From the IMG/VR virus record IMGVR_UViG_3300045776_000084: DNA of 36,037 nt; one strand, given 5' to 3'. Below the pieces are notes generated by a model. The model worked only from the letters and a program-made list of their open reading frames with translations. It had not been told where the DNA came from and did no database searches. The DNA is from a virus. Positions within the stretch are counted from its first letter, which is position 1, and the number at the start of each line of letters is the position of its first letter. This document shows positions 28,478 through 28,906 of the stretch, piece after piece. The position numbers and the translations under genes are program-made.

Positions 28478-28906
28478 CTAGGAGCGGGGTGCCCACAGAG
28501 GAAGGTAGTCGAGGATATCCACCACCTCTTCCGGCATTACCGGAACGGTTGCCAAGGCAGTTGTCACTTCACAGGGGGCACCACAATCCTCACCATAAAC
28601 GGCGGGGTTGATATCTTCAAAAGTGTAGTGCTCGATCTCCGCCTTCTCCAACAGCCGCTGTACATGACGCAACTCATTCGAGTCACGAGCCCCGAGAATG
28701 ATAGTGGTGATGGCCTCGTCTGCTCTCGCCAACTGATGCTTCTCACTCAACCCTATAATCTGGTGCATCTTCATCCGGCTGGCCACATGCACAGCCTGAG
28801 CCGCGATTCTCCCCGGTACCTGAACTACCTCTCCCTCTGGGGTGGAGACAGTCTCGGCCACTACAACATAGATTCGTTTTTCGGACGGAATTTTATTCTT
28901 CTTCAC
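28478..28906 (-). CDS. Peptidyl-tRNA hydrolase, PTH2 (archaeal/eukaryotic-type) family
   Basis: RIYVVV...G.IAAQAVHVA resembles Pth2 GKGKIAAQCSHAA. The C-terminal ...ATVPVMPEEVVDILDYLPLW resembles Pth2 GPGP.E.ID.VTGHLKL. Size 142 aa. Confidence 0.55.
   Translation of the reverse strand: MKKNKIPSEKRIYVVVAETVSTPEGEVVQVPGRIAAQAVHVASRMKMHQIIGLSEKHQLARADEAITTIILGARDSNELRHVQRLLEKAEIEHYTFEDINPAVYGEDCGAPCEVTTALATVPVMPEEVVDILDYLPLWAPRS

Follow-up and report, generated by a model that had tools for sequence, protein, structure and literature searches.

We report that a short gene in a 36,037-nucleotide stretch of viral DNA (IMG/VR virus record IMGVR_UViG_3300045776_000084; the whole stretch, 36 kb of a phage genome, is referred to here as the window) encodes a divergent relative of peptidyl-tRNA hydrolase 2 (Pth2), which we name PTH2L, for Pth2-like protein. 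An earlier note on this DNA had called the gene a Pth2-type peptidyl-tRNA hydrolase in a phage-like element. Our comparisons show that PTH2L is homologous to Pth2 and is predicted to share its four-stranded alpha/beta fold, and that it represents a phage family in which the active site has been remodelled. We regard it as an even call that PTH2L is still an esterase acting on acyl-tRNA, as part of a toolkit by which large phages keep tRNA and translation usable. The acyl-tRNA substrate, the Arg33/Asp98 substitution and the biological role are what we infer for the protein.

PTH2L is a real, conserved gene and not a chance open reading frame (ORF), because the ORF is exact, its product matches PF01981, gene calls on 16 metagenomic contigs give an identical protein flanked by the same neighbours, and its homologues fall into hundreds of clusters. 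The gene and its presumed translation signal are located as follows.

28478..28906, minus strand: PTH2L coding sequence, 142 aa, GTG start, from the ORF listing
28913..28917, minus strand: GGGAG, a Shine-Dalgarno-like motif 6 nt before the GTG (28906), read from the sequence and putative in function

A scan for promoters and terminators returned sites no commoner than expected by chance.

The relationship to Pth2 emerges from sequence, profile and structure comparisons. The protein contains PGRIAAQAVHVA, which matches the pattern GxIAAQxxHxA that the earlier note had singled out, and the Pfam search proposed there produced a hit to PF01981 (PTH2) with 26 bits against a gathering cut-off of 23 (E=1.1e-5), covering residues 31-137 of the protein and positions 15-114 of the 115 in the profile. 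No other Pfam family was matched at E<=0.01; at E<=1 the only addition to PTH2 was a sub-threshold DUF6246, and bacterial Pth1 (PF01195) was absent. The preference for Pth2 over bacterial Pth is borne out by these matches, with the qualification that PTH2L forms a separate family and is not recognized by the NCBIfam models for Pth2, which are considered below. Among 51 relatives of PTH2L, 38 matched the PTH2 family at E<0.01 and none matched another. Aligned by hhalign with a canonical Pth2 set made up of five phage proteins and three PDB fragments, the family gave a probability of 96% and an E of 4.5e-9. From an alignment of 51 sequences AlphaFold2 gave a model with a mean predicted local distance difference test score of 95.2. 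The top 14 Foldseek matches of this model in the PDB are all Pth2 structures (3erj, 2zv3, 1wn2, 1q7s, 1rlk, 1xty), with E from 1.6e-6 and probability 1.00. In BFVD the top 29 matches are nearly all viral peptidyl-tRNA hydrolases or unnamed proteins, and none carries a different annotation. At the level of sequence, phmmer with the single protein found nothing in the PDB, and the family profile reached Pth2 chains there only weakly (E 0.015-0.4). A 16S rRNA methylase that the same profile matched in the PDB (E 0.0097) was judged spurious. NCBIfam gave no useful match for PTH2L or for the R2K and major vault protein (MVP) homologues encoded next to it, and the only PHROGs match of PTH2L was phrog_1866 (E 2.7e-4), a group of 'unknown function'.

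The family seems to be both discrete and confined in its distribution. A word-indexed search found 114 homologues. When 1.84 billion representatives were searched exhaustively with a HMMER profile, 384 clusters were matched at E<=1e-3, of which 296 remained at E<=1e-10. The search ended at these few hundred clusters without running into the canonical Pth2 set, for which there are 6,721 matches. On sequence grounds PTH2L can therefore be regarded as a family in its own right, made up of about 300-380 clusters (at 50% identity) and seen here only in phage sequence. All 16 of its IMG/VR loci lie on viral contigs, 73-463 kb in size, which, together with an rIIB homologue at 31719..32951 in the window, confirms the phage setting proposed earlier. 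A scan of 185,579 prokaryotic species genomes (one each) for the pattern LDYLPLW revealed no relative; the pattern is narrow, so this negative is no proof of absence from cellular genomes. A tblastn search of 50,697 phage records recovered one relative with 36.5% identity, the hypothetical protein gp176 of Tunturiibacter phage Tunturi_5 (308 kb), which is the sole cultured representative of the family. A blastn search of the same phage collection with a 5.9-kb region of the window gave no match. Canonical PTH2 is present in 59-70 phage records and is usually annotated as peptidyl-tRNA hydrolase; its carriers include mycobacteriophages, phiCbK-like, RaK2-like and phiM12-like phages, Atu_ph07, Xoo-sp13, RsoM2USA and huge metagenomic phages.

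Conservation was counted over 241 family members and compared with 120 sampled canonical Pth2 sequences. The signature residues of PTH2L are G32 (239/241) and R33 (237/241), Q37 (240/241), H40 (239/241), T67 (237/241), D98 (241/241), N100, Y104 (240/241), T116 (237/241) and a C-terminal D133-Y-L-P-L-W138, a motif found in approximately 90% or more of the members. Near-invariance of this kind fits what would be expected of an enzyme. Both the HMMER-to-PDB and the hhalign alignments place R33 at the canonical Lys of GK-x-x-AQ-x-x-H, and D98 aligns with the Asp of DxGxT. By hhalign, T116 aligns with a canonical Thr and a family Pro with a canonical Pro, and the PDB profile alignments agree. In the canonical sample the Lys is present in 120/120 sequences, as is each of the D, G and T of DxGxT. 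PTH2L keeps the catalytic Asp as well as the helix of the active site, G-[K/R]-x-x-A-Q-x-x-H; what it has gained is the near-invariant Tyr104, Asn100 and the C-terminal DYLPLW motif. Taken together, the alignments show that the active site is remodelled relative to that of canonical Pth2. The protein is also longer than canonical Pth2, whose sampled median is 118 aa, the additional residues forming a beta-hairpin at the N terminus and an insert that follows helix 1.

What would such a protein do in an infected cell? In the mechanism that we favour, PTH2L would cut the ester that joins the tRNA 3' end to an acyl group, which could be a peptide or an amino acid with a blocked N terminus. The Arg33-Asp98 pair and Tyr104 would replace the canonical Lys/Asp/Thr arrangement. 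Freed tRNAs would return to the pool, so that translation might be kept running, and this recycling or rescue would work alongside phage RNA repair to counter host attacks on tRNA or translation. The suggestion in the earlier note that the protein rescues translation or clears tRNAs before repair is plausible. It is not new, as peptidyl-tRNA hydrolysis in ribosome rescue after tRNA cleavage has already been proposed for the PTH2 proteins found across jumbo phages (Iyer et al. 2021, PMC7824862). The same study described HNH-Rnl2 fusions, CCA-adding enzymes and R2K ligases in jumbo phages. Of that RNA-repair set, the 36 kb of the genome seen here contain an HNH-RNA ligase and no tRNA gene, and a CCA-adding enzyme adjoins PTH2L in one homologue locus only. 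That Pth reverses the acetylation of aminoacyl-tRNA by TacT toxins (PMC9241777) provides a concrete conflict scenario besides tRNA cleavage. Two further loci point to tRNA 3' ends, each as a single case. One is a 3,130-bp contig (L037, Logan SRR29078103) on which a Clp_N-PTH2L fusion (P0126) directly follows a CCA-adding enzyme with an HD domain; a tRNA-Gly gene lies on this contig too, as does an ORF resembling a low-molecular-weight phosphatase, with a CX5R motif recognized by eye. The other is mycobacteriophage Myrna, where a canonical Pth2 lies 3.4 kb from a CCA-adding enzyme.

A number of observations weigh against continued activity on acyl-tRNA. The earlier note had named the conserved catalytic Lys and Asp as decisive: the Asp is present throughout the family (D98), whereas the Lys is found in 0/241 members, its position being occupied by Arg in 237/241 and by Met or a gap in the rest. 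The Gly of DxGxT aligns with N100 and its Thr with the variable position 102, so that both are lost. In S. solfataricus Pth2 the residues K18, D86 and T90 are reportedly the most important for activity, and of the equivalent positions only the Asp is strictly kept in PTH2L. The NCBIfam equivalogs for Pth2 (TIGR00283 arch_pth2; NF003314) matched neither the window protein nor Tunturi_5 gp176 at E<=0.1, while the Pth2 of mycobacteriophage WXIN, used as a control, passed TIGR00283 with 106.7 bits against a cut-off of 82. PTH2L of the window is acidic (pI 5.35, net charge -6; the canonical median pI is 8.2), which is not as expected for a stand-alone tRNA binder and lends no support to a basic RNA-binding surface. 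A scan for tRNA genes was negative for the window and nearly so for 20 related loci, and the link between PTH2L and a CCA-adding enzyme depends on one short contig. Finally, the gene neighbourhood is mostly synteny inherited within two phage clades; the loci are for that reason not independent evidence for functional coupling.

The neighbourhood in the window, which bears on the alternatives discussed below, consists of the following genes.

35427-36029, minus strand: C-terminal part of UvrB (Helicase_C, UvrB and UVR domains), running off the end of the window
32944-35370, minus strand: 808-aa protein, rIIA-like by position only
31719..32951, minus strand: rIIB homologue, by tblastn to rIIB of jumbo phages Xoo-sp13 and PA5oct; its homologues in related loci match Pfam Phage_T4_rIIB, and it marks the phage backbone and anchors the syntenic block
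31292-31612, minus strand: 106-aa ORF
30254..31240, minus strand: Ku-like DNA-end-binding protein (Pfam Ku 1.7e-20, phrog_4873)
29883-30128, minus strand: 81-aa ORF
29005..29913, minus strand: R2K-clade ATP-grasp protein (Pfam R2K_3 6e-18, R2K_2 6.8e-9), directly upstream of PTH2L
25888..28347, minus strand: MVP homologue, 819 aa (MVP_shoulder 3.5e-26, Vault_3 1e-9), 130 nt downstream of PTH2L
13261..14046, minus strand: small ATP-dependent DNA-ligase-like protein, 261 aa (DNA_ligase_A_M 1.9e-9), with homologues in 7 related loci
10335..11390, minus strand: fusion of HNH (1.3e-6) and RNA_ligase (PF09414, 1.9e-28)

The neighbouring ATP-grasp enzyme and the RNA-ligase fusion in the same element, both noticed previously, are therefore present, as R2K_3 and as HNH with PF09414. 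On the identical contigs metagenome gene callers start the R2K_3 gene at 29829, which gives a protein of 274 aa. The MVP gene has a strong AAGGAGG ribosome-binding site. For the DNA-ligase-like protein the NCBIfam ligase models score well under cut-off; the retention of this minimal gene together with Ku in a syntenic block suggests phage-encoded end joining. Three plus-strand genes (14295-20627) break the minus-strand block between MVP and the ligases. They encode proteins of 1,229 aa (collagen repeats, CBM_5_12), 627 aa (a weak F5/8 type C match) and 237 aa, and resemble tail-fibre or host-recognition genes; the insert is absent in relatives such as L014. A ClpB/Hsp100-type AAA+ gene (AAA_2, ClpB_D2-small; 2040-4568, minus strand) is split by an intein with a LAGLIDADG homing-endonuclease domain.

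Many related contigs, viewed 10 kb to either side of each match, share a recurring block in which rIIA-like, rIIB and Ku genes are followed by PTH2L, in some cases DnaJ and SET genes, then R2K_3, NUDIX, DNA-ligase-like and RNA ligase genes, with variable small ORFs in between. Within a clade of large phages PTH2L thus belongs to a conserved block of early genes, and RNA ligase homologues lie 2-8 kb from it in at least five related lineages. L018, L020 and L024-L027 form a second clade, in which a tyrosine-recombinase-like gene is common to the loci; two of them have SPFH/Band_7 and one a GSP_synth ligase. These neighbours, like the SLT and IS605 transposase genes also seen there, are uninformative or reflect inherited synteny. 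The block with rIIB, Ku, PTH2L, DnaJ, SET, R2K_3, NUDIX and ligase also occurs on an 894-kb contig (L034, JGI Ga0374055_0000025; 894,233 bp). As a single phage genome this contig would exceed the 735-kb maximum in the phage collection used, but it may equally be a concatemer, a product of misassembly or cellular DNA; the longest contig of an MVP homologue, P0390, has the same size (894,233 bp).

MVP keeps similar company in distant phages. The MVP of the window has 6,129 homologues at E<=1e-20, and it is 40% identical to proteins encoded by Al-Shayeb huge phages of 462 kb and 735 kb. One preprint, from 2023, has described viral MVPs without analysing their context. Six lineages were sampled from the MVP side. 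PTH2L adjoins MVP in two of them, namely the window and L014/L054. In a third (L051) a PTH2 variant of 103 aa (7697-8008, plus strand; Pfam 3.7e-8) lies 2.4 kb from MVP and has Gln at the canonical Lys position (PGQQMLQAAHA), which makes it a second Lys-less PTH2 variant near MVP. In the 462-kb phage LR756500.1 (12958-31387 in reverse complement is locus L052, and the cluster lies at 517-12459 of that locus) PARP, R2K, AAA, RNA ligase, HD plus kinase and DFP genes precede MVP and Macro follows, with the genes from the PARP catalytic domain through Macro clustered within 12 kb. The kinase neighbour there combines HD with a P-loop kinase, and the DFP assignment is one of likeness; the pairing of MVP and PARP recalls the eukaryotic vault (MVP and PARP4). 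In L053 MVP stands between an RNA ligase and a metallophosphoesterase, and in L055 the only such gene is an R2K_3 at 9 kb. This last contig also encodes a ribosomal protein L12 homologue (2505-2876, plus strand), an LPG_synthase_C-type protein (5464-6414, plus strand), which we take to be an aminoacyl-tRNA-dependent transferase, QueC and GTP cyclohydrolase I. Overall, MVP is repeatedly near genes for RNA ligase, an end-healing phosphoesterase or kinase, R2K ATP-grasp and PTH2-type proteins. Judged from contigs of equal size, MVP homologues apparently share contigs with PTH2L even when the two genes are not adjacent.

These surroundings, together with the altered active site, raise the possibility, clearly second to an acyl-tRNA esterase, that PTH2L is a Pth2-fold hydrolase whose substrate has changed. 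The adduct that it removes would then be another one in ester or amide linkage, for example an ADP-ribose-type ester or a tag, aminoacyl or peptide, attached by R2K; PTH2L would act as an 'eraser' or as a partner of R2K, MVP or both. The exchange of Lys for Arg, the disappearance of the DxGxT Gly and Thr, and the arrival of Tyr and DYLPLW would all be compatible with a new substrate. R2K enzymes are predicted to be protein-modifying peptide ligases in phage-host conflict (PMC4431377). In the window R2K, PTH2L and MVP are adjacent on one strand, R2K_3 occurs within 10 kb of PTH2L in about six lineages, the unrelated 462-kb phage clusters PARP, R2K, AAA, RNA ligase, HD-kinase, MVP and Macro, and the Gln-bearing variant lies close to another MVP. 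The partnership with R2K is, however, far from regular. Of the assessable viral R2K_3 loci 4/10 have PTH2L within 10 kb and 6/10 do not, and in several PTH2L lineages the nearest 8-10 kb contain no R2K. In L054 a 43-aa ORF between Ku and PTH2L (3535-3684, plus strand) matches R2K ATP-grasp (E 4e-9); it is the apparent remnant of a decayed R2K gene, while the adjacency of PTH2L and MVP stays. R2K as an obligate partner of PTH2L is ruled out by the R2K loci without PTH2L and by this decay. The chemistry presents a further difficulty. ATP-grasp ligases form amide bonds; to our knowledge esterase activity is the only one described for the Pth2 fold, and we know of no substrate for it other than tRNA.

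Could PTH2L have abandoned catalysis altogether? A catalytically dead Pth2-fold protein might bind tRNA 3' ends, ribosomes, a Clp/AAA+ partner or an MVP shell and serve as an adaptor, decoy or inhibitor. We consider this doubtful, as R33, Q37, H40, D98, Y104 and T116 are each conserved in at least 98% of the 241 sequences, a pattern typical of retained chemistry, and the change from Lys to Arg preserves the charge and a possible salt bridge to Asp. The idea draws on the loss of the canonical Lys, Gly and Thr, on the acidic character of PTH2L, on the conserved C-terminal DYLPLW, which could serve as a docking peptide, and on the one member fused to a Clp_N adaptor or substrate-binding domain. 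Yeast Pth2 also has a non-catalytic role, in which it binds ubiquitin-like (UBL) domains. The notion that PTH2L is an ordinary Pth2 orthologue, equivalent to the archaeal/eukaryotic enzyme and to the annotated phage Pth2, is unlikely: a Pfam PTH2 match above cut-off, the label peptidyl-tRNA hydrolase that JGI gives to several homologues and the frequency of canonical PTH2 in large phages (59-70 records) speak for it, but the equivalog models that accept the WXIN control reject PTH2L, phmmer against the PDB is empty and the family profile reaches Pth2 chains there only at E 0.015-0.4, the family search stops at 384 clusters and not at thousands of canonical Pth2, the single relative in 50,697 phage records is annotated as hypothetical, and the signature residues differ.

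A more ambitious extension can be envisaged, which we think improbable. PTH2L may be a dedicated partner of a phage vault-like MVP assembly, forming with R2K, RNA ligase and end-healing enzymes a protected compartment or scaffold for the repair or recycling of tRNA and translation components during infection by huge phages. By the same long shot, such a compartment would be the prokaryotic-virus counterpart of the eukaryotic RNA vault. The proposal is prompted by the adjacency of PTH2L and MVP in two lineages and a PTH2 variant near MVP in a third, by the RNA ligase that abuts MVP in two more and by PARP and Macro around MVP in one huge phage.

What does an altered Pth2 in large phages mean? 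Since phage Pth2 and its predicted role are already known, a plain Pth2 call would add one more example. The novelty lies in a discrete family, phage-only as found here, that keeps the Pth2 fold and the Asp while the Lys is replaced by Arg and the neighbouring loop is rebuilt. If PTH2L is still a peptidyl-tRNA hydrolase, a Lys and a Thr thought essential in Pth2 would be dispensable, which would inform the mechanism of Pth2; if it is not, huge phages would be using a new activity on an old fold. The recurrent proximity of PTH2L to viral MVP, R2K and RNA-repair enzymes offers a testable lead on the role of bacterial and viral MVPs, and perhaps on vault function, and Tunturi_5 gp176 offers one cultured system for PTH2L.

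Set beside known systems, PTH2L has relatives at several distances. Bacterial Pth1 (PF01195) presumably catalyses the same reaction, hydrolysis of the peptidyl-tRNA ester, with an unrelated fold and sequence. DUF2000 (Atu0240, PDB 2gax), presumably the other known Pth2-fold family, gives no sequence-profile match from PTH2L (Pfam, E<=1). With archaeal/eukaryotic Pth2 (PF01981; 1wn2, 3erj, 2zv3, 1xty, 1q7s) PTH2L shares the start of the G-x-x-x-A-Q-x-x-H-A helix, the catalytic Asp, a beta-strand Thr and a Pro. It differs in lacking the Lys, replaced by Arg, the Gly and Thr of DxGxT, the VVR-x-DL motif, a Trp and the beta2 Lys, and in possessing Tyr104, Asn100, the N-terminal beta-hairpin, the insert that follows helix 1 and, where canonical Pth2 has LKLL, the DYLPLW motif; it is acidic instead of basic and fails the NCBIfam equivalogs. 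The canonical PTH2 of phages and giant viruses (Myrna, WXIN, Atu_ph07, RaK2/K64-1, phiCbK, phiM12) nearly always keeps GK and DxGxT (K64-1 is among the rare exceptions), whereas PTH2L forms a separate cluster. These canonical proteins are likewise encoded in large genomes with RNA ligases and CCA-adding enzymes, and the role proposed for them is the same as that proposed for PTH2L, the recycling of tRNA and the rescue of ribosomes.

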